The position numbers were made by a program, and so were the translations under genes. From a virus (lineage: Duplodnaviria; Caudoviricetes), in the IMG/VR virus record IMGVR_UViG_3300037478_000223, positions 9,147-73,146 of that record: DNA of 64,000 nucleotides; one strand, 5' to 3'. Shown piece by piece: positions 1-62,527 of the stretch; the first letter of the stretch is position 1; every line of letters begins with the position of its first letter. The notes under the pieces are model-generated. The model was not told the DNA's origin. It ran no database searches and saw only the letters and a program-made list of their open reading frames with translations.

Positions 1-2
1 TC

Positions 3-542
3 CACTGCGCGCCCCCGATCAACCCGACGCTCTACCGCGTGCGGCTCGGGAACGCGATCGGCGCTGTCTCGACCGCGCGAGCCAAGGGCGGTGACCTCGT
101 GGCAGAGATCGCCCGCAGGATGCCGAAGCGTCGGTTCGTCGTGGCGCGGGATCCGGCAGGCAACGGGACCCACTTGTTCGCTGGCCTGACGAACGTGGAG
201 GTCATCCCGTTCGGGGACCCGGCGAAGTTCTACGGCCGCTGCAAGATCCTGCTGTTCCCGTCCGTCACGGAGTCCTACGGCCGCGCACCGGTGGAGGCTG
301 CCGTGTCCGGCATCCCCACCATCGCGACCCCACTCAAGGCCGTGAAAGAGGCGTTGGGGGGCCGGGGGACGTTCGTCCCGAGGCATCAGGTCAGCTTGTG
401 GGTTCGGGAGGCAGAAAGGATGATGCGCCATCCGATCGTGTGGGCAGCATCCTCGTCACAGGCGCGGAAGCTTGGCGAGTCACTGGACTATGCGGCAGTG
501 CGGGCCCGGTGGGTGTCCGAGGTGGAGCGGCTGAGGAGATAG
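3..542 (+). CDS. Glycosyltransferase, GT4/GT-B family, C-terminal part (5' end outside window)
   Basis: Frame open from window edge; motif FYGRCKILLFPSVTESYGRAPVEAAVSGIPTIAT is the GT4 E-x7-E signature. Confidence 0.85.
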   Translation, partial: HCAPPINPTLYRVRLGNAIGAVSTARAKGGDLVAEIARRMPKRRFVVARDPAGNGTHLFAGLTNVEVIPFGDPAKFYGRCKILLFPSVTESYGRAPVEAAVSGIPTIATPLKAVKEALGGRGTFVPRHQVSLWVREAERMMRHPIVWAASSSQARKLGESLDYAAVRARWVSEVERLRR

Positions 543-666
543 CGACGTAACGGCGCCCGTGGCATGTGCCGCATGACGTCGGCAACGCCCAGATGGTTCG
601 AGCGGCGTAGTGCACGACCGGGTGTAGTCGGATACCGCTGCCCTGGCATGTCCGGCATCGTGTCAC
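391..666 (-). CDS. Small zinc-finger protein (CxxCxGxG-type motifs)
   Basis: CRTCQGSG and CGTCHG motifs; AGGAGG RBS upstream of GTG; 3' end overlaps the GT gene antisense. Confidence 0.5.
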   Translation of the reverse strand: MTRCRTCQGSGIRLHPVVHYAARTIWALPTSCGTCHGRRYVAISSAAPPRTPTGPALPHSPVTRQASAPVTRMLPTRSDGASSFLPPEPTS

Positions 667-867
667 GGTTCCCCGGTCCTCCTGATGTTCAGGGTGAAGA
701 TGAGTCTTAACCTGACTCTACGGAGTTCTTCGCGTACCTCCATGCGGAAACAGATGCAGGGCCGACAGACACACGATGCCCGGTCATGCGTCGCCGGATC
801 GTTCTCCACCCAGAAGCGTTCAGTCATGCCGCCGTTGTTCCCCCTCGAACCACGCCCGTTGCCCCTG

Positions 868-924
868 GCGCCGCATGTGCCGCGCCATCTGCCGCGCCAT
901 CTGATGCGCCATCTGATGCGCCAG
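868..924. repeat. Direct repeats GCGCCATC with 12-bp period, candidate clt (cis-acting locus of transfer)
   Basis: GCGCCATCTGCC 882, GCGCCATCTGAT 894 and 906, partial GCGCCAG 918; non-coding, about 270 bp downstream of traB. Confidence 0.6.
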
Positions 925-975
925 GATCATTCCACTATCTTCCTCGTGGAATCGGTATCCGCACCCGACATATGC

Positions 976-1016
976 ACAACATACGTGTTGCGCCCGGTGC
1001 GGGATGAAAATAGAAT
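976..1016 (+). promoter_or_regulatory. Operator-promoter: ACAAC-N6-GTTGC overlapping TTGCGC-17-TAGAAT
   Basis: Direct sequence match. Confidence 0.85.
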
Positions 1017-1048
1017 GGGAGGCAACCCATCCACGACAGGAACGAGTC

Positions 1049-1585
1049 ATGCCCAAGATCTACGTATGCCGCCGGTGCGGAAACGCCACCACCAACCCGT
1101 CCCGGTACTGCCCAGCCTGCCGGTATCGCAAGGGGGCCCTTGCACCATCCCACAATGGTGCAAGGGCCCCCCTTTTCCCCCTCTGCCACACAGACTACCG
1201 GCCACGTGCCCGATTCTGCGCGTCAACCACATCGGCGCGCTTGACGCCCTTGGTCGGTGCGACGTCACTACTGATCCGCACCGAACCCACCTTCACCCCG
1301 GCCTCACGGAACAACTGGCCCACGTCCCGCGCGCCACACTCACCCCACGAGCCTGGGTCATGCGCTCGCAGCAGCGAAGCCAGCTCGCCCAGCCCGGCAG
1401 ACGGGCGAACCACAGTCCCGTCCAGCGGCCACACGTCCACCACCGCGTCCAGGAACACACCAGACGTCCCGTCATCGTCGTCCGCCGGGACATCTCCGGC
1501 CGCCATCCCGGACAGCGTGCCAGCCTCACGCCGCATGGCCTCGATTTCCTTCACCATCGCGTGCACGCTCGGCAAGTCCAGGTAG
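1049..1585 (+). CDS. Possible zinc-ribbon protein (CRRC...CPAC); 3' part runs antisense into traB
   Basis: RBS AGGA plus ATG just after the promoter; no stop before the hairpin at 1132, so true end uncertain. Confidence 0.3.
   Translation: MPKIYVCRRCGNATTNPSRYCPACRYRKGALAPSHNGARAPLFPLCHTDYRPRARFCASTTSARLTPLVGATSLLIRTEPTFTPASRNNWPTSRAPHSPHEPGSCARSSEASSPSPADGRTTVPSSGHTSTTASRNTPDVPSSSSAGTSPAAIPDSVPASRRMASISFTIACTLGKSR
1132..1176. terminator. 17-bp perfect stem hairpin, T-run on plus side
   Basis: GGGGGCCCTTGCACCAT / ATGGTGCAAGGGCCCCC followed by CTTTT; just past the traB stop. Confidence 0.8.
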
Positions 1586-3387
1586 GACAGCTTCGTCTTG
1601 ACCATCGAACCACCAGCGATCCCGATGAACGCGACACCCGGCGTGTCGATGTCCACCGCACGGTAGCCCCGGCCGTGAGCATCGGACCCGAGCGCGATAT
1701 TCGCGTCAGCGATGCTGTTCTGCGCGTGCCCGACGCGGTGCTTGCACCGGTCCAGGATCCGCGCCGGAACAGTGCCTTCCTTCGCGCCCTGGAACACGAG
1801 CCGGACCGTGATTCCGACCGAGCGAGCCGTCTGCACGACGTCCAACAAGCTGTCTTCGGCCTCGTTCGCGATCGGGGACAGGAACACACGCGGGACCTCG
1901 TCCAGCAGCACGAACACCGGCCGCATGTCCTGGCGATCCGCCAACGCGTCGGTCAGCTTCGAGTCCGGGCATTCCTCGAACGGAAGCGTCTCCAACACCT
2001 TGTTCCGCCGTGCGACCTCGGACCGGAGCCACTTCAACGTCCCCATGAACGCCTCCAGGTCCGCCGCGTCGCACCCGTTGCGCAAGGTGTGCGCGATCGG
2101 CGCGAACGCCTTGTAGTCCAGCCCACCCTTGAAGTTGTGGATGGCCAAGAGCGTTCGCGGGTCCATCGCGGCACCCAGGATCAGCAGCCGCGCGGTAGCC
2201 GACTTCCCGGAACCGACGTCGCCAGCAATCCCGCCGTTCGTCTCGAACAACGGCACGATGACATCCCGACCCCGCGCGTCCACGCCGACCGGAACACCAT
2301 CGAAGTACGAGCGCGAGCGCACCTGAGCCCACTTCCACGCCGGAGACGGCATGCGGGACAGCAGCCCGTCAGCAACGAACAGCTCGAACGCACCCGGCGA
2401 CACGTCCGGCAACGGCTCCACCACCAGGCACTCAGCAGGCTTGCCCATCGCGGACGCGAACCGGCCGTGACGCTTGATCAACTCAGCCGTCTCCAGTCCA
2501 GGAGCCATCCTCACCGTGAGCAACACGCCACCCTGCACGCGCTCACCAGACATCACGCGCGACTTGGCACCGTGCAGGGCACCGAACCCGGACATGGCCA
2601 ACGCGTTCTCCACGGTGGTGACCAACGCCTGATCCTCGTGAGACGACGGAGCCAGTTCCTTGGGATCCTTCGACCTGAACAGGTGAAACTTCCCCTGCAC
2701 CGGATCCCCCTCCGGCATCTGCGCAGTCACGACCACCGGCCGCACCGACTCCACAGCACCGGGACCGTCCGGCACGGGCGCTCGAAGATCTTCCGGCACC
2801 TCGGCACGTAACGGCCACGTGTTACGGCGCTCGCGGACGCCCGCGACGATGAACACGGTGACGGTTCCTGCGATCACGGCTGCCGGGACGGTCCCCCACT
2901 TGCCGTGTTCGGACCACATCCACGCCGCGAAGAACGGGGAGGCGACCACAGCCAGGCGCAGCAGCTTCCCGCGTCCCTTCCCGGCCGCGACCCAGTTCTT
3001 GGCTCGTACGGCGCTGACCTTCACCCCGAGGGCGAAGTACAGCGGCGCGCGCACGATGTGGAATGCGGCGATACGGCCTGTGTATGCGGCGCGTGCCTTG
3101 AAGCCGCCACGGACACGCGGGATCGGGACCGGGCGCACGACGGGCGCGGGCTGCGGCGCGACAACTGCCCCGGCGGGAACCGTCTGCGCTGTGGCCGGTT
3201 CGACGACGGGCCCGTTGTCCGGCTCCGCGTCGCCGCTCGCTGTGTCGTTGCTGTCGAAGGTCTCTTCGATCCGGTCAAGCGAATCATCGGCTTCGAGCAT
3301 GTCCAAGAGCCGTTCGTTCACCTCGTCAGCTTCGTAGCCGCTGAGCCGTTCGTGGTCGCCGTCGTCGTAGTGTGCATTGTCGGTCAT
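1195..3387 (-). CDS. traB: TraB-type FtsK/SpoIIIE conjugative DNA translocase
   Basis: N-terminal TM segments, Walker A GDVGSGKS, AMDPR...HNFKGGLDY, Walker B VFVLLDEV, C-terminal winged-helix-like domain; architecture of actinomycete plasmid TraB. Confidence 0.85.
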   Translation of the reverse strand: MTDNAHYDDGDHERLSGYEADEVNERLLDMLEADDSLDRIEETFDSNDTASGDAEPDNGPVVEPATAQTVPAGAVVAPQPAPVVRPVPIPRVRGGFKARAAYTGRIAAFHIVRAPLYFALGVKVSAVRAKNWVAAGKGRGKLLRLAVVASPFFAAWMWSEHGKWGTVPAAVIAGTVTVFIVAGVRERRNTWPLRAEVPEDLRAPVPDGPGAVESVRPVVVTAQMPEGDPVQGKFHLFRSKDPKELAPSSHEDQALVTTVENALAMSGFGALHGAKSRVMSGERVQGGVLLTVRMAPGLETAELIKRHGRFASAMGKPAECLVVEPLPDVSPGAFELFVADGLLSRMPSPAWKWAQVRSRSYFDGVPVGVDARGRDVIVPLFETNGGIAGDVGSGKSATARLLILGAAMDPRTLLAIHNFKGGLDYKAFAPIAHTLRNGCDAADLEAFMGTLKWLRSEVARRNKVLETLPFEECPDSKLTDALADRQDMRPVFVLLDEVPRVFLSPIANEAEDSLLDVVQTARSVGITVRLVFQGAKEGTVPARILDRCKHRVGHAQNSIADANIALGSDAHGRGYRAVDIDTPGVAFIGIAGGSMVKTKLSYLDLPSVHAMVKEIEAMRREAGTLSGMAAGDVPADDDDGTSGVFLDAVVDVWPLDGTVVRPSAGLGELASLLRAHDPGSWGECGARDVGQLFREAGVKVGSVRISSDVAPTKGVKRADVVDAQNRARGR

Positions 3388-3484
3388 GGCGGGGGTTCCT
3401 TCCGGTGGGGGATGTGCGTCGGTCCCGCCGCGTGAGTGGTACGGCGGGACCGACTGGAGGGGCAACAGGGGGTAGGCGCGCGTG

Positions 3485-3889
3485 TCAGGCGAACCCGAAT
3501 GCGCCGATCGTGGAGTTGATCGCCAGCGGCAGCCACGACGTGATCAGCGGAGTTGTACCGACGATCATGCACGCGATCACCAGGGGCACAAGCTCACCCT
3601 TCTTGATGGTCTTGTCCCACAGGATGACGGCCAGGATCGCGGTCGCGATGGCCAGGACACCCACCGTGTAGGTCGCGCCTCCAGCCGTGGACGGGAACCC
3701 GAGCATGCCAGTGAACGCGTTGATGATGCCGTTGAGCATCGGGGCAAGGAACCCCTGAATCCTGGGGGCCGATCCGACGATCATCGACACGATGATCAGG
3801 ATGTAGAGCGCCGCGCCGCTGGTCTTGTTGTGCCTGATCATGAAGATGAGCATGCCGACAGCGAACATGGCGACAAATGCGTCATACAT
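3485..3889 (-). CDS. Four-TM membrane protein, co-oriented upstream of traB (transfer/spread accessory)
   Basis: Almost entirely hydrophobic 134 aa; position in putative tra operon. Confidence 0.7.
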   Translation of the reverse strand: MYDAFVAMFAVGMLIFMIRHNKTSGAALYILIIVSMIVGSAPRIQGFLAPMLNGIINAFTGMLGFPSTAGGATYTVGVLAIATAILAVILWDKTIKKGELVPLVIACMIVGTTPLITSWLPLAINSTIGAFGFA

Positions 3890-4026
3890 GGGTGGTTGGT
3901 GCCTCTCTTGTTGGCTGTGAGGCAGCTAGGATGTGTCTGCCTCGTTGGTTGGGGTTGGGCTGTGACTGCTGTCTCCCGTCTTACTGGAGGGCGGGAGGCA
4001 GCGCGCTCGCGGTGCAGGGGGCTGGG

Positions 4027-4299
4027 TCAGTCCTCGCCGTGGAACTGCTTGTGGATCTTCCGGGAGGCGATCACGCGCCGGACTTGCTGGGGTGTGAGTC
4101 CGAACATCTTGCCAATCTTCCCGGTCGTGAGGCCACCCTTCGAGGGGGTAGTTTCGTCACGGTCCTGGGTGTAGATCCGGTAGATCTCGGCATCACGTTC
4201 GGCCAGTGCCCGGCTGGACTCTTCACGCGCTTGGGTCAGCTTGACGGCCAGGGGGTGCAGCGCGGGTTCCTGCGGTTCCTCCTTCGAGTTTCGGGTCAT
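4027..4299 (-). CDS. Small HTH DNA-binding protein, candidate master repressor
   Basis: LTTGKIGKMFGLTPQQVRRVI HTH; GAAAGG RBS; two perfect operators upstream. Confidence 0.75.
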   Translation of the reverse strand: MTRNSKEEPQEPALHPLAVKLTQAREESSRALAERDAEIYRIYTQDRDETTPSKGGLTTGKIGKMFGLTPQQVRRVIASRKIHKQFHGED

Positions 4300-4325
4300 G
4301 GTTGCCTTTCTGGTGGACGAATATT

Positions 4326-4376
4326 GCAACGCCAATGTTGCCACACCACACACCCTTAATGCAACTAGAACGTTGC
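4326..4376. promoter_or_regulatory. Two perfect GCAAC-N6-GTTGC operators (4326-4341, 4361-4376); leftward promoter TTGCAT-18-CAACAT
   Basis: Direct sequence; the leftward -10 is non-canonical. Confidence 0.75.
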
Positions 4377-4402
4377 GCGCGCGTGGGTGCTTCCCGTACA
4401 GT
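4361..4402 (+). promoter_or_regulatory. Operator-promoter TTGCGC-18-TACAGT for the rightward membrane/hydrolase operon
   Basis: Direct sequence match. Confidence 0.75.
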
Positions 4403-4447
4403 CAGGGACCGACACCACACTCACCACGCATGGAAGGAACCACCACC

Positions 4448-4618
4448 ATGGGCAAGCTCATCGCCGCCATCATCCTTGGCGCTTTCCTGGGCGTCTTCGT
4501 CATGCTCGCCCTCGGGTACGACAAGACCCTTGCCGCCTCGTTCGCCCAGAACGCCCGCACTGTCTCGCACATCGTCGGCACCATGAACGACGCCACTGCC
4601 ACGGGCGGGGGCGAGTGA
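4448..4618 (+). CDS. Small membrane/secreted protein
   Basis: GGAAGGA RBS; hydrophobic N-terminus MGKLIAAIILGAFLGVFVMLALG. Confidence 0.7.
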   Translation: MGKLIAAIILGAFLGVFVMLALGYDKTLAASFAQNARTVSHIVGTMNDATATGGGE

Positions 4619-4887
4619 TGTTCGGCGGAGACGACCGCGTATCACGCACCCTGCGCCGCTTCATGCTCTGGGGCGTGCTGTCCCTGATCGCCTACCTGAT
4701 CTTCTCCACCGAGGTCACAACGGTTCCCGGCAGCTTCGGGGACGTCCTGGAGAGCACATGGGTCCCGGTGCTGATCACCCTGACCATCGGGTTCATCCTG
4801 TTCGCCCCGGACAAGTGGGCCAAGGCCGTCAAGGGGTTCTTCGGCCTGGTCATCCTGTCCATCGTCCTGTACTGGATCCTGTTCTAG
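4618..4887 (+). CDS. Small 3-TM membrane protein
   Basis: TGATG coupling with previous gene; hydrophobic. Confidence 0.7.
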   Translation: MFGGDDRVSRTLRRFMLWGVLSLIAYLIFSTEVTTVPGSFGDVLESTWVPVLITLTIGFILFAPDKWAKAVKGFFGLVILSIVLYWILF

Positions 4888-4890
4888 CCC

Positions 4891-5082
4891 ATGGCGACGC
4901 ATAGACGGTGGTGGAACACACCATTCGGAAACGGACCAATCACCGTGGCACTATGGTGGCTGGCCTGGACACCACTGTTCGTCGGCGCGTGCGCTTACAC
5001 GGCCGGACTCCTGGCCTGGTTCCTCGCTCAGCTCGTCGGGTGGGGAATCATCCAGATACTCACCACCGCACCCGCCACCTAG
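4891..5082 (+). CDS. Small membrane protein
   Basis: Trp-rich hydrophobic 63 aa, tight packing. Confidence 0.6.
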   Translation: MATHRRWWNTPFGNGPITVALWWLAWTPLFVGACAYTAGLLAWFLAQLVGWGIIQILTTAPAT

Positions 5083-5094
5083 AGAGGGAACACC

Positions 5095-5424
5095 ATGGAC
5101 GCCAGCGACTTCGATCCGCGCAACCCCCGCGACGCCCGCGCGTTCGCGGAAGGAGTCATGGCAGCCCAACGCGATTCCCGGGCCCGGATCGAACAGCAGC
5201 AGCACCACACCGAACAGGCCGAAGAAGCCAAGCGGCATCTGGGATGGCTCGTGCTGTGCGCGATGCTCTTCCTCACTACCGCGTTCAACGCGGAGTCATG
5301 GGCGATCGGCCTCGCGTCGTTCGTGCTCGGACTCGGCATCGCGGGTGCTGTCGTCGCCAAGATCGTGTCGTGGCACAGGCACGCGACCGAAGCCAGGAAC
5401 TACGAACCCGAGGCCGGAAAGTGA
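5095..5424 (+). CDS. 2-TM membrane protein
   Basis: GAGAGGGA RBS; two hydrophobic segments. Confidence 0.7.
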   Translation: MDASDFDPRNPRDARAFAEGVMAAQRDSRARIEQQQHHTEQAEEAKRHLGWLVLCAMLFLTTAFNAESWAIGLASFVLGLGIAGAVVAKIVSWHRHATEARNYEPEAGK

Positions 5425-5756
5425 TCATCGACAAGATCGCACGCAAGATCACGAGCAAGCACGTGGAATCCACGTCCCGAACCGCCTACCACGGCACCGT
5501 GTACCGGATCAGGACCGTGGTGTGGCGCCATTGGGGCGGTCTGGCATGGTCATACACCATCGAACGCCCCAACCTGTCCAACCCGCTGGCACCGCGCATC
5601 GTTGATGCATCTAGGATTCACCTTTCCTACTACCAGGCCAAGCATGAGGCAGTGATTGAGGTAGGTGCCATCATGGATGACATCTACGCCACCATGAGCG
5701 CCATCTACGATGGTCATCCTCAGTACACGCACAGCCTCAACGACAGGGGAAGATAG
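5421..5756 (+). CDS. Hypothetical protein
   Basis: GTGA overlap with previous stop. Confidence 0.6.
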   Translation: MIIDKIARKITSKHVESTSRTAYHGTVYRIRTVVWRHWGGLAWSYTIERPNLSNPLAPRIVDASRIHLSYYQAKHEAVIEVGAIMDDIYATMSAIYDGHPQYTHSLNDRGR

Positions 5757-5760
5757 GGAC

Positions 5761-6045
5761 ATGGAACTCGAAGTGACGATGTGCGGCTACCTGGACGACG
5801 TCGTTCCCATCGACGTGCAGTACAGGCGCAACATCCTGCGCCGCTACAGCTACCTCCTGTACTGGGTGGAGCCCATCGACCGGTACGGCTACCAGACCTC
5901 CGCGTCGCAGGCGCGCGCGCGCGTCGAACCTCGTCGCTTCTGGACCATGCAGGCAGCAGAACGCCACGCCCGCGAAGCCGCCCAGACGATCCGTGAGCGC
6001 GTGGCCCGGGAAGCGGACTACTACGAACTTCCGGCGGCTTCGTGA
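5761..6045 (+). CDS. Hypothetical protein
   Basis: AGGGA RBS, tight packing. Confidence 0.6.
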   Translation: MELEVTMCGYLDDVVPIDVQYRRNILRRYSYLLYWVEPIDRYGYQTSASQARARVEPRRFWTMQAAERHAREAAQTIRERVAREADYYELPAAS

Positions 6046-6182
6046 ACCGGCGTACCCGTACCGTGTTCGTCGCCATCCTGGCCGTCACTCTCGCAATCGC
6101 GTGGGTGACGGCCGGTTTCATGTTCACCCACTGGCACAACGACCCGCTTCCCATTGAAACGCCCGGGTCCATGTCACGATGA
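6042..6182 (+). CDS. 46-aa single-TM peptide directly upstream of the peptidoglycan hydrolase (holin-like candidate)
   Basis: Translated by hand: MNRRTRTVFVAILAVTLAIAWVTAGFMF...; GTGA overlap. Confidence 0.55.
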   Translation: MNRRTRTVFVAILAVTLAIAWVTAGFMFTHWHNDPLPIETPGSMSR

Positions 6183-6186
6183 GGGC

Positions 6187-6873
6187 ATGGCCCTTTCCCA
6201 GCAGGTCACACCAACCTACGTGCTTGATCTCTACATGCGTTGGGCCGACCTCAACGGCTACCACGTGGGCGAACACCCGGACTACGGCGGAGTAACACCC
6301 GGCGTGCACGCGCTCGCCTCATGGCACAAGGACGGCCTTGCAACGGACATCAACTGGGGCGTCGGCAACCCACCGGCAGAGCGAGATAAGCTGATCACCG
6401 CAGCCATCGTGGCCGAATCGATGGGTCTAGCGCTCACCTATGCCAGATACGGGACCGCCGGGTCAGCATCGAATCACCGCAACCATCTCCACGTAGACGT
6501 AGGTGAATGGTCGAACTACGGGAACGGCAACGTACGCCGCAAGCCTGGAAGCCTGGTCCCCTACCGGCTCCAGACAGCAGTGTTCCGCTTCGTGCGCCAG
6601 CGAGACAACCTCTGGGGCGACCAGACAGGCAAGCGGCTCCACGCCGTACGCATGGCTTCCAGGATGCACGGGACCAAGTTCCCCTACGGGATCCCGTTTA
6701 CGCGCCGCGTCATCAGCGCCCGGAGCGGCAAGAACTGGGATCACTCAGCCCGTGAGGAACATGACGCTACCGTTCTCGTGATCCAGGAAGCCCTCAACGT
6801 CACCGAAGACGCCGTATGGGGCACCGAGACTGATAGCGCCTACCTGGAGGCGCAAGGCCGCTACCGGCGGTAG
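6187..6873 (+). CDS. Peptidoglycan hydrolase/endolysin, M15-like Zn peptidase plus C-terminal cell-wall-binding-like region
   Basis: SWHKDGLATD (H-x6-D) and NHLHVD (HxH) motifs; C-terminal QEALNVTEDAVWGTET resembles PG-binding repeats. Confidence 0.75.
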   Translation: MALSQQVTPTYVLDLYMRWADLNGYHVGEHPDYGGVTPGVHALASWHKDGLATDINWGVGNPPAERDKLITAAIVAESMGLALTYARYGTAGSASNHRNHLHVDVGEWSNYGNGNVRRKPGSLVPYRLQTAVFRFVRQRDNLWGDQTGKRLHAVRMASRMHGTKFPYGIPFTRRVISARSGKNWDHSAREEHDATVLVIQEALNVTEDAVWGTETDSAYLEAQGRYRR

Positions 6874-6878
6874 ACGAA

Positions 6879-6910
6879 AGCGCCAGCCACCATGCATGGT
6901 GACTGGCGCT
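6879..6910. terminator. Hairpin between convergent genes
   Basis: AGCGCCAG-CCACCATG/CATGGTGA-CTGGCGCT. Confidence 0.6.
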
Positions 6911-6924
6911 CGCGGCTTCGTGGT

Positions 6925-7302
6925 TCAGGCCAGGTCGGCGCGCGTGTAGGTGACCTCACCGGAACGGGAAGAGCCGTTCATGACGGGGACCGTGATGGCG
7001 TCGGTTCCGTCACGGTCCATGCGGCGGGTGAGCATGGCCTTGAAGCCCTCGCGGAGGGGGACCAGGCCGTCACGGACGCGGACGCTGATAGACGCGTCCA
7101 GCGGGCTCAGGATCGTCGCGCGCGGTCCGGCCCGGTGAAGTTCCTCGGGGCGGTAGCTCTCGGTGACTCCGTTGTCGTGGCGGACGACGGCGATGGTAGT
7201 CGCGCGGCGGATGACCGTTCCGGCGTAGCCGAGTCCGGACGGGAACCGGCGGACGCGGTCGCCGGGGGCCGGGAAGTTGAAGAGGCTGTTGGTGGTGGTC
7301 AT
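6925..7302 (-). CDS. Hypothetical protein with own operator-promoter
   Basis: GAAAGG RBS; promoter at 7374-7414. Confidence 0.7.
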   Translation of the reverse strand: MTTTNSLFNFPAPGDRVRRFPSGLGYAGTVIRRATTIAVVRHDNGVTESYRPEELHRAGPRATILSPLDASISVRVRDGLVPLREGFKAMLTRRMDRDGTDAITVPVMNGSSRSGEVTYTRADLA

Positions 7303-7373
7303 GGCGGGCCGTCCTTTCGTGGCTCCCAGTGGCTCCGGTGGAGCGCGTGGGCTGGGTGCCCCCGACAACGAGT

Positions 7374-7414
7374 ACGTTACACACTTCCTCGCGCGTGCGC
7401 AACATCAACGTTGC
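7374..7414 (-). promoter_or_regulatory. Operator-promoter GCAAC-N6-GTTGC, TTGCGC-17-TAACGT
   Basis: Direct sequence match on minus strand. Confidence 0.85.
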
Positions 7415-7496
7415 TCGGGACGTGAAACGGCCGGTGACATCCGGAAGAAAATCCGTCCCCCCGGATGCCACAGGCCGTCTGACCAGCGGACCTACT

Positions 7497-7769
7497 CTAC
7501 TCGCTCGCGCTGACAGCCTCCGACTGGCAGCAGCCCGAACCCTTCACCGTCTCGGAGTCCACGGCACTGACCTCCAGTGCCAGCGACGCGCGACACGCCG
7601 CGTCCTTGCCTTCCAGCAGCTTGCGAAGAGCCACGCTCTTCTCAGGGCCGTCCGGCAAGTAGTCGTCCCACTCGGCCGCCAGTGCCTCAGCCGGGAGCGC
7701 TGCTCCCACGATACGCACATCAGTGGTGCGCTTGGTGGTGTCGAAGTATTGCATCACGTGGTTGCTCAT
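7497..7769 (-). CDS. Small helical actinophage protein (LPDGPEKSVALRKLLEGKDAACRA family)
   Basis: Recognisable C-terminal helical motif. Confidence 0.65.
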   Translation of the reverse strand: MSNHVMQYFDTTKRTTDVRIVGAALPAEALAAEWDDYLPDGPEKSVALRKLLEGKDAACRASLALEVSAVDSETVKGSGCCQSEAVSASE

Positions 7770-7778
7770 GTTCGCACG

Positions 7779-8084
7779 CTACAGCGCAACGTACTCCCGC
7801 GCCGGATCACCGTCAGGGCGACGTCTTCCCGTGTACGGGTCACGGATCCACCCCGTGGGCTCCGTCTCAGGATGGTTACCGTCCCAATCCCGGGCGCCCT
7901 GTATCGCGCCCTGAATGGTGGCGTAGCACCAGTGCTTCTCGAATCCAAGTTCTCCATCCGGTCCGACGACCAGAGCCCACGTAAACAGCCGCGACACGAG
8001 CCACACGACATGCCCGGAGTCGAGGACGCGGAGCCGGGAGCCACATGCGATCGGATCCCATGGGTATGTCTCGTCGATGATCAT
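7779..8084 (-). CDS. Hypothetical protein
   Basis: ATGA coupling, plausible composition. Confidence 0.6.
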   Translation of the reverse strand: MIIDETYPWDPIACGSRLRVLDSGHVVWLVSRLFTWALVVGPDGELGFEKHWCYATIQGAIQGARDWDGNHPETEPTGWIRDPYTGRRRPDGDPAREYVAL

Positions 8085-11290: not shown

Positions 11291-11373
11291 AGGAGTGTGG
11301 CAGAGCGGTCGATCGCGCCCGGCTGTAAACCGGGTCCCTTCGGGGGACGGGGGTTCGAATCCCTCCACTCCTA
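11291..11373 (+). tRNA. tRNA-Tyr (GTA), long variable arm
   Basis: Acceptor AGGAGTG/CACTCCT, anticodon arm CCCGG-CTGTAAA-CCGGG, TPsiC GGGGG-TTCGAAT-CCCTC, discriminator A, CCA not encoded. Confidence 0.92.
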
Positions 11374-11377
11374 CCGG

Positions 11378-24673: not shown

Positions 24674-26437
24674 TCAGGCCGCCAGTTCCATGGCCGGTGA
24701 GTCGATGGTGCACGTCTCGTTGGAGCAGCCGCAACCGGACAGGATCGGCAGATCGAAGTAGTACGCGGAGCAGCCTCGGAAACAGGTCTTCTCGAAGCTC
24801 TCCGCGAACGCCTGACGGTCGTTCGTCGAGTTGAGCATGCTGTCCGTGATGTTCGTGCCCAGGTCCAGCGTGCCGCCGTCCAGGAACACGAACGAGTCCA
24901 CGGGGTGGACGTAGACACCGGCGCTCGCGGGGGTGTCGCCGGGCATCATGACGCGGTGCTCGTTGAACTGCGGGTCGAAGGTGCCGTCGAACGTCCACAC
25001 GACGTCCACGCCGATGGAAGAGAGCCATCCGTTGATCGTGGCGTCTGCGACCTGGATGACGTCGATGTTGTTCGCGACGCCGAGGTTGGTGATGACCTGG
25101 TTGCGGATGTAGTCGCGAATGAACGCGTCTGCGATGACGCGGTAGCGGCGGGACATGTTGCGCTGCGCGGACCGGTCAGCGGCGACCACGGTGTTGATGC
25201 CCGTGAGGAACGTCTGGAGCGTGTTGCAGCCGTCCATGGTGCCGAGGTCCACGCTGGCTGCGTGGATCTCTTCGATGATCTTCTGTTCGGCGACGCGGTC
25301 GAACTCCGCCTTGAGGAGTGCGAGGGTCGCTGCCCAGAACTCCGGGGAGAAGATGGCCTGGAAGTTCCCGACTGTGACACACCGCGTCACCGCGTCAGTG
25401 GCGCAGGTCAGTTCCTCGGGGCACGTGATCGGCGGGCAGGGCTTGGACGGGAGCGGGGGGGAGCCGGGGGACCATCCGGGGCTCTGGTTCAGGCATGCGG
25501 CTTCGTCCATCTCCAACGTCCAGATGGAGACGTTCTCGCGCAGGTCACCGATGCTCATTGCGGGGGCAAAGGTGATCTTCCCTCTCGTGGCCTGGAAGTT
25601 GGGCAGGGCGTCCCGGATGGGGCGTCCCTCTTCGGAGCAGATGGGGTGGCTGTGGTCCACGTCGCCGGGCCCGCACAGGCCACAGGCGGCGGCGACGGGC
25701 GTCTCCTTGGAGTCGGCGGAGCCGGTTCCGAACAGGTCCAGCATGCGCCGGTTGTTGACGTCGGAGTTGAATCCGAGCTGTCGGGACTCGTCGAACTCGC
25801 GCGTGATGCGGAACAGGTTGCCGGTGTCGGAGACGCTGGTGATCTTCTTCGCGTGCAGGGAGAACATGTCGCCCAGTTCGCGGAAGTCGCCGTTGTCGAG
25901 TCGGTCACCCTGGGCGGGGCCCAGGCCAGCCATGCGCATGCCCTTGCGGGGCACGGTCTCGATGACCTGTGCGGGGGCGCGGCGGGATCCGATGGACTTG
26001 ATGCGCGCGATGATGTCGGACGCGGATGCGGCGACGGGCTCTTCGGCCTTCTTCTCCTGCTTCTGCCCCGACGTGTCACCCGAGCCGGTGCCGTCGTCGT
26101 TCTTGGACGACGCGCCGGTGTCGCTGTCGGCGGTCTTCTTGTCGCCGGACTTGCTGTCGTCGTCGAACAGGTCACCGGCGAGTTCGTCAAGCTGTGCCTT
26201 GGTCTCGGCATCTTCCTTGGCGCGGGTGTCGAGTTCGGATGCGATCTTGTCCACGCCTGCGCGGAGCTGAGCGGCGAGGGCCTTCGCTTCCTTGGCTTCG
26301 TCGCCGGAGGACTCGCGGGCGTCGGTGATAGCGGCCCTGAGAGCGTCGCGCATGTCCGTGTGTGCGGCGGTGAGGTCGCTGGTTGACGGCTTGTTGTCGC
26401 TGTCGAGTGCAGCGAGGATCTTCAACGGGTCCTTCAT
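24674..26437 (-). CDS. Major capsid protein (hexamer-like) with N-terminal scaffold-like region
   Basis: Charged helical/low-complexity N-terminus then capsid-like region (IRDALPNFQATRGKI, FLDGGTLDLG...FAESFE). Confidence 0.8.
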   Translation of the reverse strand: MKDPLKILAALDSDNKPSTSDLTAAHTDMRDALRAAITDARESSGDEAKEAKALAAQLRAGVDKIASELDTRAKEDAETKAQLDELAGDLFDDDSKSGDKKTADSDTGASSKNDDGTGSGDTSGQKQEKKAEEPVAASASDIIARIKSIGSRRAPAQVIETVPRKGMRMAGLGPAQGDRLDNGDFRELGDMFSLHAKKITSVSDTGNLFRITREFDESRQLGFNSDVNNRRMLDLFGTGSADSKETPVAAACGLCGPGDVDHSHPICSEEGRPIRDALPNFQATRGKITFAPAMSIGDLRENVSIWTLEMDEAACLNQSPGWSPGSPPLPSKPCPPITCPEELTCATDAVTRCVTVGNFQAIFSPEFWAATLALLKAEFDRVAEQKIIEEIHAASVDLGTMDGCNTLQTFLTGINTVVAADRSAQRNMSRRYRVIADAFIRDYIRNQVITNLGVANNIDVIQVADATINGWLSSIGVDVVWTFDGTFDPQFNEHRVMMPGDTPASAGVYVHPVDSFVFLDGGTLDLGTNITDSMLNSTNDRQAFAESFEKTCFRGCSAYYFDLPILSGCGCSNETCTIDSPAMELAA

Positions 26438-26452
26438 GGCGATTTCCACCAA

Positions 26453-38776: not shown

Positions 38777-39904
38777 TTAACCGGCCGTGACCTGCCGCAA
38801 CAGATCCATCGGGGATGCCTCGATCGCCGGTCCCTCGGACGTGGCAGCACCCTGAGCCGCTTCTCGTTCCAGGCGCTCCATCTCTGACGTCAGGATCGCC
38901 TTACGCCGGTCCATCGGGCGCATCGACGCGCCGCCGTCTCGCGCACGGACGGCCTGAGCCTGCATCTTGGCGTAGTTCTTCCGCAGCGAAGCGGCCCCGA
39001 GGATCACCCCGGACCAGAACTGATCCGCACGCGCCCAGTCGATCGCAGCGCGAACCTTCTCGGGGCTACGCCCGTCGATGTCCACGAGCCTGCGCATCGT
39101 GTCGAACGCGTTCTTGCTCGCCTTCGGGCGCTCGCCGGTGCACTGCTGCACGGACTCGGCCAGGTACTCCAGGAGTTCGAGGATGTCCGGCCGCGCGTCC
39201 GCTACGCCCTTCCACGCGGCCTGCTTCGGCTTGGAAGCGCCCGGGGCGTCATGGCCGGGTGCGGGGACGTCCTGGACGTGCTGGGGCGCCTCTGCGTGGT
39301 TGTGGCCGTCAGCGCGAGAGCGTCCGCACCGGACGCACCCGGGGGCGTCTTCGTCGGCGTCTTCGTCGATGGTGGGTTGCGTCGGCCCTGCCGCGTCAGC
39401 GGCCGGGGGGAGATCCGCGTCAGCGGTTCGAGGGGTGTCGTTCTTCCACTGGCTCTCGTTCAACTGGCTCTCGTTCTTTCCCTCCCCACTTACTGGGGAG
39501 GCCCCCTCCCCACTTACTGGGGAGGCCCCCTCCCCACTTACTGGGGAGGCTGCCGGGTCCGGTGCGAGGGGGATGACTTCGACCGTGTAGCTCGTTGAGG
39601 TCTGCATCCCGTTGTCGCGGAATCGCAGTTCACGGGTCAGGGCTCCGGCCGTGACCAGTTCGGCAAGCCACTTGTCGATCGACGTCAACGAGACGCCCGT
39701 TTCTCCCAGGGTGCGGCCGGGCATCCTCTCGGCCAGGGTCTTGCGCTTGGGCCACGCTTCGTCGTCCGTGTTCGCGTAGCGGGCCAGGAGTGCGTACAGG
39801 CGCATGGCTCCGTTGGAGATGTTCGGGTCCATGATGATCCACTCGGGGATCTGCGCGAATCGGACTCGTGCCCGGACTCCAACGCGTTCGTGGCTGTCGG
39901 CCAT
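38777..39904 (-). CDS. Replication initiator, lambda-O-like (N-terminal HTH, C-terminal FWSGVIL...LRKNY)
   Basis: FAQIPEWI...AMRLYALL...AWPKRKTLAERM wHTH; internal DNA repeats. Confidence 0.8.
   Translation of the reverse strand: MADSHERVGVRARVRFAQIPEWIIMDPNISNGAMRLYALLARYANTDDEAWPKRKTLAERMPGRTLGETGVSLTSIDKWLAELVTAGALTRELRFRDNGMQTSTSYTVEVIPLAPDPAASPVSGEGASPVSGEGASPVSGEGKNESQLNESQWKNDTPRTADADLPPAADAAGPTQPTIDEDADEDAPGCVRCGRSRADGHNHAEAPQHVQDVPAPGHDAPGASKPKQAAWKGVADARPDILELLEYLAESVQQCTGERPKASKNAFDTMRRLVDIDGRSPEKVRAAIDWARADQFWSGVILGAASLRKNYAKMQAQAVRARDGGASMRPMDRRKAILTSEMERLEREAAQGAATSEGPAIEASPMDLLRQVTAG
39446..39550. repeat. Iteron-like repeats inside initiator gene (probable origin)
   Basis: 3 x 24 bp CCTCCCCACTTACTGGGGAGGCCC (39481, 39505, 39529), each internally palindromic; 2 x 15 bp C(C/A)ACTGGCTCTCGTT. 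Confidence 0.8.
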
Positions 39905-42229: not shown

Positions 42230-42486
42230 CATTGAGTGCATGCAGGCACGCGCACGCCACCGGATGCAGGTAACCGGGGTGCATGCACCTCGGGATACAT
42301 AAGGGGACCCTGGCCACCCGCCAGGGTCCCCTTCCACTCACTCACACTCACACCCGAAGGAACGAAGGGCGTGCACGGCCAAGACTAGTGCACCAGAGTC
42401 GGTGAACGGGATGCACGTCACGAGCCCTTGCAGGCACCCGGTTGCATGCAATCGGGTGCCTGCAACGCTGCACCTGCAAGAAGAGA

Positions 42487-42527
42487 GCAACACGGGGGTT
42501 GCATGCGTTACACACGTGCGGTACTGT
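42487..42527 (+). promoter_or_regulatory. Operator-promoter GCAAC-N6-GTTGC, TTGCAT-17-TACTGT
   Basis: Direct sequence match. Confidence 0.8.
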
Positions 42528-42572
42528 GCATGCATCGGGAACATCAACCGCACTCACGGAAGGAACCACGCC

Positions 42573-43715
42573 ATGCACACCGAGAACCCCCGCATCATCA
42601 AGATCATCGTCGCCGTCATCGTCGTCGCCGTCATCGCCGTGGCGATCGTGGCCAACGGAGCCGCCTACCTCGGCGGCACCGCCTTCGTCCGCGACGTCAT
42701 GGGCGAGAGCCAGACCACCGCCTACGTGTTCGGCGGCATCCTTGAAATGACCCTGGCCGTGCTATCCCTCACGGTCCTTGCCCGCTCGTACATGCTCCAG
42801 CCCACCGCAGGCGTACGCGCCGCGCTCTGGGCCGCTGCCGTGGCGTCAGCCGCGTTCGGCGCGATCCACGAGATCGTTGCTTACGCCACCGGTGAGATGA
42901 CGCTCTACCAGGCGATCCCCGCCGCCGCATGGCGCGTCGGCGCCGTCGCCGCGTCCGTCGCGCTCTGGGAACTGGTGATCAAGCTGGTGTGCGGCCCCCG
43001 TGCCCGGGAAGCTCGTGACGCCGAGAACCAGCACAAGCTCATGTACCGCTACTTGAAGGCCGTTCAGTGGGTCGGTCTGACCCAGGGCACCCGCTTTGCA
43101 TCCCTTGCACGCATGCTGGAACGGCGTGCACGCATGCAGACCGCCAAGCACGTCACCCCCGAGCAGCGGACCGCGATCCTGGAGAAGTTCCACGAGTCGC
43201 AGGAAGCCAGCGCGGTCATCTCCGTCGCGATGGCGTCCCTGGCTCAGACGACGGACGACGCGTTGAGGGACCTGGGTGACGTGTCCGCCCCGCACCTGTC
43301 CCAGCCGATCACCCGCGCAGCGCTCGGGAGCATGCACCCTGCAAGCTCGGACGCCATGCACGTGCAGACGGTGCAGGCCGTACAGGAAGTGCAGACGGTG
43401 CAGGACGTGCAGGACGTTCCGCAGGTGCAGGAGATTTCCCCGGTGCAGGAAGCCGAGACGTACACACGCACCGCCGCCGCCACGGTGGCCGACCGGTCCC
43501 GCGCGATCCGCGCTGACCTCGCCGCCGCATCCAAGCCAGCGACGTCCACGCGCAACAACGCCTCGCGCCGGAAGGAAGCAATCGCGCTCATCCGTGAGCA
43601 CTGGTCAAGCCGCGATGAGGTCACGATCCCCCAGGCGCACAGCATGCTCATGGCCGCCGGGTTCGACCACCACGAGCGCTCCACGGGCAACTGGCTCGCC
43701 GCTGCATTCTCCTGA
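42573..43715 (+). CDS. Spd/DUF2637-like multi-TM protein with C-terminal winged-helix-like domain
   Basis: 4 N-terminal TM helices, helical linker, VQ(T/D/E) repeats, C-terminal RRKEAIALIREHW...STGNWL. Confidence 0.6.
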   Translation: MHTENPRIIKIIVAVIVVAVIAVAIVANGAAYLGGTAFVRDVMGESQTTAYVFGGILEMTLAVLSLTVLARSYMLQPTAGVRAALWAAAVASAAFGAIHEIVAYATGEMTLYQAIPAAAWRVGAVAASVALWELVIKLVCGPRAREARDAENQHKLMYRYLKAVQWVGLTQGTRFASLARMLERRARMQTAKHVTPEQRTAILEKFHESQEASAVISVAMASLAQTTDDALRDLGDVSAPHLSQPITRAALGSMHPASSDAMHVQTVQAVQEVQTVQDVQDVPQVQEISPVQEAETYTRTAAATVADRSRAIRADLAAASKPATSTRNNASRRKEAIALIREHWSSRDEVTIPQAHSMLMAAGFDHHERSTGNWLAAAFS

Positions 43716-44227: not shown

Positions 44228-44234
44228 CCAGCCT

Positions 44235-44458
44235 GTGACCGAGAAAGCCGCCCCCCTCCAAACAGCCAGTTCCAGCCCGGAACCAGGCGTCTGGAGGGGG
44301 GTCTGTCATGCCGGTCACAACCACCTCATGTAGCCTCGCAACGGCTACATAGCAACGATTCCGCCCGTAACCCAGGCTGGTCACACACGCCGGTCACGCC
44401 CGGTCACGTGACCGGCATGTGACCGCCGGTAACCGCACCTGTGACCGCCCACGGTTAC
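44235..44458. repeat. Cluster of GGTCAC/GTGACC (GGTNAC) motifs in both orientations
   Basis: About ten copies, e.g. CCGGTCAC 44311, 44390, 44400; GTGACCG 44408, 44419, 44441. Confidence 0.7.
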
Positions 44459-62174: not shown

Positions 62175-62527
62175 CCAAGCGTGACGACAACGAGCCACAG
62201 TGCGCCCAAGAGATCGGAGTCGGGCAAGGACACCGGAGACAGTGCAGCAGGAAGGCCGTCGAAGACGGCTACTGCCGACAGCACGCGAACGATCCGCGCC
62301 GACAGGTCGAACGACGCATCATGCAGTTGCAAGACCTGGTGGCCGACTCCGTGCGCGCGCTCCACGAGGTGGTCAACGACGTCGAGCACAAGGACCGCGT
62401 CAAGGCGGCACAGATCGTGTTGGACCGAACCGGATACGGACCGGCGCACACGGTGAAGTTGGACGACTTGCGACGCGAGATTGAGGCAGAGCTTGACGAC
62501 GACGATGGAGGCCCCGAACCCGCTTGA
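62171..62527 (+). CDS. Probable terminase small subunit
   Basis: Immediately upstream of and overlapping terL; DRVKAAQIVLDRTG helix. Confidence 0.65.
   Translation: MTKRDDNEPQCAQEIGVGQGHRRQCSRKAVEDGYCRQHANDPRRQVERRIMQLQDLVADSVRALHEVVNDVEHKDRVKAAQIVLDRTGYGPAHTVKLDDLRREIEAELDDDDGGPEPA

Follow-up and report, generated by a model that had tools for sequence, protein, structure and literature searches.

A TraB-type DNA translocase gene retained in a lineage of apparently non-temperate tailed phages from soil and sediment

Background

Plasmids and AICEs of mycelial actinomycetes, together with one plasmid-phage, are the known settings of TraB-type transfer of double-stranded DNA (dsDNA). On the Streptomyces venezuelae plasmid pSVH1, the 772-aa TraB protein has an N-terminal region, a membrane segment, an FtsK/SpoIIIE motor and a C-terminal winged helix; a GntR regulator and spd genes lie by traB, and the plasmid has an array of the word GACCCGGA. 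The AICE modules of Promicromonospora panici and of the metagenomic elements that carry P0055 and P0034 include DUF2637, DUF6284, Prim-Pol or RepSA, excisionase and integrase genes, with small genes and a membrane protein ahead of the pump. Proteins of the DUF2637 family are encoded next to TraB on AICEs and plasmids.

The Streptomyces plasmid-phages pZL12 and pSLE1 form virions and are described as carrying a TraB-type tra gene which is needed for transfer together with two adjacent genes. Both are plasmids of ~90 kb with ParA and ParB, pSLE1 having integrases as well. Cultured tailed phages also encode FtsK-like ATPases of the same family, among them the cluster J mycobacteriophages Baka and Omega, Bacillus phage Troll and Streptomyces phage Gilgamesh. 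FtsK-like genes have been noted in many actinophages, and links to host development or replication have been suggested. The FtsK gamma/KOPS and SpoIIIE/SRS systems combine a dsDNA pump that has a winged-helix tail with a short polar word over-represented across the replicon.

Results and discussion

The window analysed here is a 64,000-nt stretch of the record IMGVR_UViG_3300037478_000223, and all coordinates refer to it. The record is a 73-kb siphovirus, 100% complete according to CheckV, with a complete virion and packaging module (TerL, portal, MCP, adaptor, major tail, TMP and minor tail). The MCP matches proteins annotated 'major capsid hexamer protein', and the check for a two-capsid head extends to this match. 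The stretch occurs only in metagenomic contigs of sediment and soil, and the phage has so far not been seen in an isolate. A megablast search of window positions 1-8000 against phage records gave no match, and searching viral contigs with the single FtsK or the single TerL protein returned no relatives; these became detectable only after alignment queries replaced single-protein queries. Five close relatives were found, with 59-63% identity in the MCP and 75-80% in the major tail protein. A search of 185,579 species-representative genomes with the FtsK alignment gave no close relative, and none was found in PLSDB; the host may be unsequenced. The lineage is apparently one of non-temperate, actinobacterial tailed phages of soil and sediment.

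The translocase

The gene at 1195..3387 (minus strand) encodes a TraB-family FtsK/SpoIIIE dsDNA translocase of 730 aa, as judged from Pfam, PHROGs, a phylogenetic tree and structure models. The reading frame is open over 1195-3465 on the minus strand, and the likely start is the ATG at 3387, which has GGAAGGA ahead of it and gives the 730-aa product. The protein is laid out as an acidic N-terminus, a membrane segment, an ATPase core and a C-terminal winged-helix domain. It scores 36.3 bits against Pfam FtsK_SpoIIIE (cut-off 24) and matches phrog_1358 at 1e-16. The Walker A motif (GDVGSGKS, residue 389) and the Walker B motif (FVLLDE, residue 492) are invariant across 14 homologues. Residues 1-95 have a net charge of -16. 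A strong transmembrane (TM) segment lies at residues 166-184 (KD 2.09) with weaker helices at 106-127, and the structure model places four helices at 96-190 with low pLDDT. Foldseek matched the motor best to FtsK motors (E 1.7e-9) and then to the conjugation coupling protein TcpA. With phmmer, the translocase had no match at E<=0.01 among PDB sequences, FtsK and EccC chains included, and the EccCa profile reached 28 bits against a cut-off of 509.

The C-terminal 95 residues were modelled with a pLDDT of 88 and a pTM of 0.79, in the order H-b-H-H-hairpin. Nearly all structural neighbours of this domain are winged-helix proteins (Rex, MarR, PadR and the WHDs of ORC/Cdt1). Since these matches are weak (Z<=6.5, Foldseek E>=0.04), they support the fold class alone; FtsK gamma was absent among the fold-search matches listed for the domain. 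The first-pass annotation had described a 730-aa FtsK/SpoIIIE ATPase with a TM anchor and a C-terminal wHTH, and this description agrees with the Pfam match, the Walker motifs, the 166-184 segment and the model. Its 4-TM gene and HTH gene ahead of the ATPase were also found, at 3485-3889 and 4027-4299, both on the minus strand.

Ancestry and retention

The motor-domain tree (FastTree, LG+gamma) was built from 359 columns and 67 sequences with E. coli FtsK as the sole cellular outgroup and no EccC. The phage proteins form a clade with support 1.0 nested within the plasmid and AICE TraB radiation, and the TraB proteins of pSVH1 and pFP11 branch outside this clade. Among cellular proteins, those that match the phage translocase best are FtsK/SpoIIIE proteins encoded by AICEs and by small plasmids of actinomycetes, pSVH1 among them. 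The AICE proteins are the nearest relatives, with 30-34% identity (E 1e-50 to 1e-36) in alignments that run through the C-terminal domain; the pSVH1 protein shares the domain layout and is 26.5% identical over the motor (E 1e-13). The modules of the sister proteins read DUF6284-WhiB-DUF2637-TraB-PrimPol-Xis-Int. On its phylogeny and the contexts of its nearest relatives, the ATPase is TraB-type, as had been proposed.

The cultured-phage FtsK-like proteins differ in this respect, branching toward chromosomal FtsK with Baka, Troll and Gilgamesh outside the TraB radiation; in a tblastn search with the phage protein, Gilgamesh was the sole cultured-phage match (23% identity, E 1e-10). A grouping with non-conjugative phage FtsK-like ATPases, which the first-pass annotation had named as contrary to its claim, was not seen. 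A true TraB-type clade in a whole phage lineage is now set apart from the FtsK-like genes of cultured phages.

The translocase gene is present in five of the five close relatives at 40-71% identity, with its catalytic residues invariant. Contigs from an independent sample span the cassette and its flanks unbroken, with the cassette in the same context. Because all the close relatives carry the gene, the translocase is, on this comparative evidence, an old and retained acquisition.

Organization of the cassette

The gene at 3485..3889 (minus strand) encodes a 134-aa membrane protein with four hydrophobic segments. It is conserved upstream of the translocase in relatives L003, L004, L005, G001 and G002. 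The protein has no Pfam or PHROG family match, and hhalign gave a probability of 0.1% between its profile and that of DUF2637. The first gene of the unit, at 4027..4299 (minus strand), encodes a small HTH protein of 90 aa that resembles sigma-70 region 4 and HTH_23 below threshold. The protein also has a sub-threshold match to HTH_28, its L003 orthologue matches Sigma70_r4 at 7e-4, and further orthologues are found in L005, G001 and G002. Where a GntR regulator and spd genes accompany traB on pSVH1, the phage has a small sigma-r4-like HTH protein and an apparently unrelated 4-TM protein. As in the AICEs, the pump is preceded by small genes and a membrane protein; in contrast, none of the DUF2637, DUF6284, Prim-Pol or RepSA, excisionase and integrase genes of the AICEs was detected beside the phage gene.

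The divergent promoter region of the cassette carries two copies of the operator palindrome GCAAC-N6-GTTGC, at 4326..4341 and 4361..4376. The window has 12 perfect sites of this palindrome versus 0.05 expected, and the pair is kept in L003 at 9037 and 9071. With two of the 12 sites in the promoter region of the cassette, the earlier proposal that the tra unit is wired into the phage operator regulon holds. On the plus strand, the right arm of the second copy provides the divergent membrane-gene operon with a TTGCGC -35 element, and TACAGT comes 18 nt after it. The M1 promoter family (TTGCNN-N17-TAACGT) has ~17 copies, none of which is upstream of the cassette; what the cassette shares is the operator palindrome alone.

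A perfect 17-nt inverted repeat at 1132..1171 lies 24 nt beyond the translocase stop codon and is a probable bidirectional terminator common to the cassette and a convergent small zinc-ribbon ORF. The cassette appears to be its own transcription unit, on the strand opposite to its neighbours, with its own promoter region and terminator.

Transfer and maintenance functions

No clt-like array or 8-mer cluster was found near the translocase gene in this phage or in eight relatives. In pSVH1, the positive control, five copies of GACCCGGA lie in the 100 bp that follow the traB stop codon; pSVH1 is a plasmid with such an array, whereas the phage is a tailed virus without one. A 12-bp tandem repeat of ~4 copies, containing GCGCCATC, is located at 865..924. 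It was considered as a clt and rejected as a conserved feature, being absent from the eight relatives and having two units deleted in sample X4. No Spd or DUF2637 homologue adjoining the translocase was detected. Six-frame searches of the whole record found no integrase, serine recombinase, ParA (AAA_31) or ParB_N, the partition searches being run with positive controls. The replication initiator is lambda-O/DnaD-like with internal iterons. Such initiators with iterons occur in lytic and temperate phages alike.

A strand-polar word

The word GGCGCTCGC occurs in this phage (G000) 18:0 by strand versus 1.2 and 1.3 expected, irrespective of how the genes are oriented. Seven of the 18 copies are in minus-strand genes, four in plus-strand genes and seven are intergenic. 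One copy (2826..2834, plus strand) lies within the translocase gene on the antisense strand. Other copies in the window start at 6905, 24920, 29750, 38387, 39127, 41292, 45688, 46733, 51545, 52886, 55081, 56524, 59393, 60147 and 63239. The word is also polar in G001 (1:15) and G002 (0:13); in G003 (6:11) and G004 (6:10) it is enriched and not polar. It is enriched in five of five FtsK-bearing genomes and polar in three of them, with marginal or no enrichment in three FtsK-less relatives; this contrast between genomes with and without the pump represents one phylogenetic split. A wing motif, GVK(R/H) versus GAR, tracks the polarity of the word, whereas the putative recognition helix does not.

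A pump with a winged-helix tail and a replicon-wide polar word resemble FtsK/KOPS and SpoIIIE/SRS, and the link of the word to the pump is an unproven correlation. The word differs from KOPS in being 9-11 nt long and in one orientation genome-wide with no switch at the origin, and in that two FtsK-bearing relatives have no word polarity. The extended form is GGCGCTCGC(GG).

Possible roles of the module

The sequence analysis shows what the pump is, where it came from, that the lineage has retained it and that it is wired to the phage operator. The explanation preferred here goes further and is offered tentatively, at somewhat less than an even chance: a three-gene AICE-derived TraB-type module has been kept by a phage lineage and pumps phage dsDNA between cells. 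An AICE-like conjugative element was the source from which an ancestor of the lineage acquired the pump, and selection has kept it in the lineage since. In the module, a membrane-anchored TraB-family dsDNA pump of the hexameric type, with a DNA-reading winged-helix tail, would be accompanied by a 4-TM protein and a small HTH regulator; the module would form a separate transcription unit whose promoter region carries the phage operator. By analogy with TraB, the pump would sit at the membrane or septum of infected cells of an actinomycete that is probably multicellular (a mycelial host is assumed), where it may move double-stranded phage DNA into adjoining compartments or cells and so allow virion-independent local spread. 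Such spread would need no plasmid-style clt and no plasmid or lysogenic state. If the pump does move phage DNA between cells, phages in multicellular bacteria would spread not by virions alone, which would bear on the understanding of plaques, immunity and horizontal transfer in soil actinomycetes. Against this explanation are the lack of a clt-like array, the sole local repeat being unconserved and variable in copy number, the lack of a detectable Spd homologue, and the opposite-strand unit with its own terminator, an arrangement classically seen in moron and exclusion genes.

That same layout, in which the unit runs opposite to its neighbours and has a promoter and a terminator to itself, is moron-typical and suggests exclusion or defence, in which the pump and the 4-TM protein would intercept or expel incoming dsDNA (phages, plasmids or AICEs) and shield the infected cell for the resident phage. 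In PHROGs, the translocase family has the category 'moron, auxiliary metabolic gene and host takeover', there is no clt, and the same bacteria commonly carry AICEs with related TraBs, which would naturally compete with the phage. However, the searches found no lysogeny functions, with which exclusion over long periods would be of use, and the conserved sequence-reading winged-helix tail, possibly with the polar word, suggests action on phage DNA; an exclusion role is unlikely, if well short of negligible. It would represent a new use of a conjugation motor. The pump might instead work inside the cell, clearing or positioning phage or host DNA at division or sporulation septa, or resolving or segregating replicating phage genomes, as others have speculated for FtsK-like genes in Streptomyces phages. 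The literature on actinophage FtsK-like genes suggests links to host development or replication, and a polar word that keeps to one strand throughout the genome is closer to what an FtsK/KOPS-style chromosome-handling motor would use than to a plasmid clt. Against this role, which is quite unlikely, the protein falls in the conjugative TraB branch and not in the FtsK or other phage-protein branches. A decidedly doubtful extension of the cell-to-cell explanation is that GGCGCTCGC(GG) is a KOPS-like code, read by the pump tail, the HTH protein or a co-varying 437-aa membrane protein (described below), which would load and orient the motor for directional whole-genome pumping through a membrane pore; chromosome-style guidance would then replace clt in virion-independent cell-to-cell spread.

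The first-pass annotation favoured a conjugative phage-plasmid similar to pZL12, residing as a plasmid and moving both as virions and by TraB conjugation. The TraB-type gene with two co-oriented genes and the initiator with internal iterons fit this reading, and the genome-wide operator could serve a global repressor. Nevertheless, the phage has no clt array and no detectable Spd, and six-frame searches gave neither partition genes (ParA, ParB) nor an integrase or recombinase; pZL12 and pSLE1, in contrast, are described as carrying ParAB. In addition, no close relative is present in the 185,579 genomes or PLSDB, and every occurrence is a sediment or soil metagenomic contig. The label 'conjugative phage-plasmid' is not supported by these searches, and such a lifestyle is improbable. 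The nearest relatives being AICE genes, the module could also be what remains of an inserted AICE or plasmid, passively carried and without function for the phage. This is strongly disfavoured and most improbable, since each of the five close relatives has kept the gene (~40% identity) with its catalytic motifs intact, and since the gene carries operators of the phage itself and is stable from sample to sample. The earlier statement that the unit is not a passive recent insertion stands on the same evidence, together with the unchanged context in an independent sample. For the preferred cell-to-cell explanation and its rivals alike, the pump, its winged-helix domain and the candidate polar recognition word are concrete sequences for testing.

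Other observations

In 22-kb excerpts of L011 and L014, a word that contains GACCCGGA is skewed. It was treated as coding bias because G003 and G004 show no strong polar word.

The window also encodes a second four-TM protein, of 437 aa (42402..43715, plus strand), with a sub-threshold match to DUF2637 (E 5e-4). BLAST comparison of this protein gave E 2.5 with pSVH1 SpdB2 and E 3.4 with a plasmid DUF2637 protein. The gene is restricted to the genomes with the polar word (G000, G001 and G002).

The three-gene cassette

The cassette consists of three minus-strand genes in the same orientation. The gene at 4027-4299 (-) encodes a 90-aa protein whose HTH matches, of the sigma-70 region 4/HTH_23 type, stay below threshold. 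It is followed by the genes for a 134-aa protein (3485-3889, -) with four hydrophobic segments and for the 730-aa pump (1195-3387, -). The pump gene has an ATG start after GGAAGGA, and its product scores above the Pfam gathering threshold for FtsK_SpoIIIE and matches phrog_1358. Both the Walker A (GDVGSGKS) and Walker B (FVLLDE) motifs are present, as is one strong transmembrane segment (residues 166-184) with weaker segments N-terminal to it. A perfect 17-nt inverted repeat lies past the stop codon. AlphaFold modelled the full-length protein poorly (pLDDT 56). In Foldseek, the confident core of that model matches FtsK motor domains best (E 1.7e-9), and the conjugation coupling protein TcpA and EccC rank next. 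The last 95 residues, modelled separately, have a winged-helix topology (pLDDT 88), and their structural neighbours are nearly all winged-helix DNA-binding domains, at modest scores. The gene order, motifs, transmembrane segment and winged-helix model therefore confirm the first-pass annotation of this locus as HTH, four-TM and FtsK/SpoIIIE ATPase genes, the last with a membrane anchor and a C-terminal winged helix. Several small Cys-rich (CxxC...CxxC) ORFs lie at 391-1060, between a glycosyltransferase gene and the cassette terminator, and one is convergent on the pump gene.

The pump is of the TraB type

As far as sequence can tell, the pump is TraB-type, and its membership of the TraB family is very probable. 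In tblastn against plasmids it matches only FtsK/SpoIIIE proteins of small actinomycete plasmids (E 1e-13 to 1e-28). One of these plasmids is pSVH1, which supplies the reference TraB for this mode of transfer. Gilgamesh is the sole match among 50,697 phage records. An exhaustive HMMER search yielded 562 relatives below 1e-10; the best named one outside the phage clade belongs to an AICE of Promicromonospora that carries a regulator, small genes, the pump, Prim-Pol, an excisionase and an integrase and adjoins a second, RepSA-type AICE. A tree rooted on E. coli FtsK (67 sequences, 359 motor-domain columns) places the phage pump proteins in a single clade with support 1.0, which lies inside the plasmid/AICE radiation. 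The TraB proteins of pSVH1 and pFP11 branch outside the group holding this clade. The two nearest sister proteins belong to canonical AICE modules (DUF6284-WhiB-DUF2637-small ORF-pump-Prim-Pol-DUF3631-excisionase-integrase). Cultured phages (Baka of cluster J, Troll, Gilgamesh) encode FtsK-like proteins that are closer to FtsK. The earlier assignment of the ATPase to the TraB type is borne out by this placement, and the grouping with non-conjugative phage FtsK-like ATPases that had been named against it did not occur.

Retention in a phage lineage

The window corresponds to bases 9147-73146 of a 73,146-bp IMG/VR virus record, which is 100% complete by CheckV and lacks terminal repeats. A siphovirus-type virion is encoded, with a terminase large subunit (window 62481-63989), portal (5516-7567 of record L002), major head protein (window 24674-26452), head-tail adaptor, major tail protein, tape measure and one minor tail protein. 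The phage also encodes Erf, RusA, glycosyltransferases and a lambda-O/DnaD-like replication initiator, whose gene contains three tandem 24-bp iterons (window 39481-39550), a probable lambda-O-type origin. The terminase and capsid are just 29-36% identical to their counterparts in Microbacterium, Gordonia and Arthrobacter phages, which by sequence marks this as an uncultured actinobacteriophage. Many metagenomes from sediment and soil contain near-identical DNA. A single tRNA-Tyr (GTA) gene is located at 11291-11375 in an ORF-poor region. Glycosyltransferase, polysaccharide pyruvyl transferase and Stealth-like genes (L002 2784-3569, window 3-542 and neighbours on contigs L004/L005) adjoin the head genes in this lineage and might serve virion glycosylation.

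About two dozen metagenomic and IMG/VR contigs carry pump homologues of 40-71% identity, whose catalytic residues and C-terminal domain are conserved. Four of these relatives, G001-G004, of which three are complete and have terminal repeats, share with this phage the terminase, portal, capsid, tape measure, adaptor and major tail protein (the last 75-80% identical), and all four carry the pump. The gene was not found in G008, a complete, more distant relative, with a positive search control. In the G003, G004 and L011 sub-lineage (IMG/VR), the pump is kept and orthologues of the HTH, four-TM and 437-aa membrane protein genes are not detectable; the strand-skewed word described below is not polar there. 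In an independent sample, two contigs span window 1-7000 unbroken at ~98% identity and none skips the cassette.

The cassette promoter region contains two perfect GCAAC-N6-GTTGC palindromes. This operator occurs at 12 sites in the window versus 0.05 expected and overlies the -35 of phage promoters; the cassette pair is kept in the closest relative (L003), and more distant relatives have zero copies. These results therefore uphold the earlier claim that the cassette shares an operator regulon with phage genes, and together with the conserved pump and unbroken cassette, the claim that it is not a passive recent insertion; that the pump is a passive remnant is extremely improbable. The low-confidence Atlas model of the 90-aa protein is structurally closest to Mor-type transcription activators (TM 0.65) and, as a lead only, this protein could activate transcription instead of repressing it, with the palindrome overlying the promoter -35. 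A separate promoter family of ~17 copies has TTGC(A/G)C, a 17-nt spacer and TAACGT within a conserved GTGTGTAACGTAGTG (window 7380, 26789, 38737, 40136, 46802, 50184, 53592, 54436, 57169, 58125 and 59859, plus six in L002). Every copy is oriented with its downstream genes, and several have an identical ~60-nt leader.

A strand-polar word

The word GGCGCTCGC, mostly extended to GGCGCTCGCGG, has 18 plus-strand and 0 minus-strand copies in the whole record (~1.2 expected per strand) and shows the strongest strand skew of any word at k = 8, 9 and 10. In the window, GGCGCTCGC(GG) starts on the plus strand at 2826, 6905, 24920, 29750, 38387, 39127, 41292, 45688, 46733, 51545, 52886, 55081, 56524, 59393, 60147 and 63239. 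Since 7 copies are in minus-strand genes, 4 in plus-strand genes and 7 intergenic, the polarity does not follow transcription. The word is also polar in G001 (1:15), G002 (0:13) and partial contigs L003-L005, and in each case the favoured strand is the one opposite the pump gene. In G003 and G004 it is equally enriched (17 and 16 copies vs ~3-4 expected) and not polar, and in FtsK-less relatives it is marginal (G008, 6 vs 2.3 expected) or absent. On the sequences compared, this contrast between pump-bearing and pump-less genomes amounts to one phylogenetic split. The HTH, four-TM and 437-aa genes co-vary equally well with the polarity; within the pump, only the wing motif tracks the word, and the putative recognition helix does not. 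The pattern resembles FtsK/KOPS more than TraB/clt. The orientation is unchanged across the iteron origin, and the word may instead be a site resembling Chi, or a signal linked to unidirectional replication or packaging.

Proposed function and alternatives

The first-pass annotation also proposed a conjugative phage-plasmid. This is not supported, as no clt, Spd partner, maintenance or integration genes, or resident copies were detected. TraB-type transfer requires clt. A repeat scan of the positive control pSVH1 found five GACCCGGA copies no more than 100 bp past the traB stop, whereas a scan of the same kind detected no clustered 8-mers in or around the phage pump gene. A 12-bp tandem repeat at 865-924 was rejected as clt, since eight relatives, the 71%-identical one included, lack it in the 1.1 kb that follow the pump gene; its copy number differs between populations, with sample X4 lacking 24 bases (two units) at window 882. 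Six-frame searches of the whole record, with positive controls, found no tyrosine integrase, serine recombinase, ParA or ParB, whereas ParAB is present in pZL12 and pSLE1, which are cited as the precedent. The 134-aa protein has no detectable DUF2637 homology, and a 437-aa membrane protein (42402-43715) has a sub-threshold DUF2637 match and no SpdB2 similarity. Downstream of the 437-aa gene is a dense intergenic CCGGTCAC(A/G) array (44234-44440, ~7 copies). No close relative was found among 185,579 genomes. Divergence, or a host not yet sequenced, may account for some of these absences; even so, there is no positive sign of a plasmid state, and the full phage-plasmid model is very unlikely.

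This phage lineage keeps a membrane dsDNA pump that belongs to the TraB family, has a winged-helix tail and lies under the operator of the phage itself. The pump would assemble in the membrane or septum as a pore-associated hexamer. In a multicellular actinomycete it would move double-stranded phage DNA into adjacent compartments or cells, with the 134-aa protein as putative membrane partner and the 90-aa HTH protein as candidate regulator. This transfer function is tentative, at roughly one chance in three; identity and transfer taken as one statement fall somewhat short of even. The same membrane-anchored motor could instead exclude incoming DNA, which is a minor possibility, or act in intracellular DNA handling or host takeover, which is unlikely.

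FtsK-like genes in actinophages are already known, as is a plasmid-phage with a TraB-type tra locus. New here is a true TraB-clade pump fixed in a tailed-phage lineage without evident plasmid or lysogeny functions and without clt, together with a genome-wide polar word. The 42-kb Pseudonocardia alni plasmid pPaSha2 has a DUF2637-TraB pair with an annotated holin ~1 kb downstream, and might be another element mixing phage and conjugation genes.
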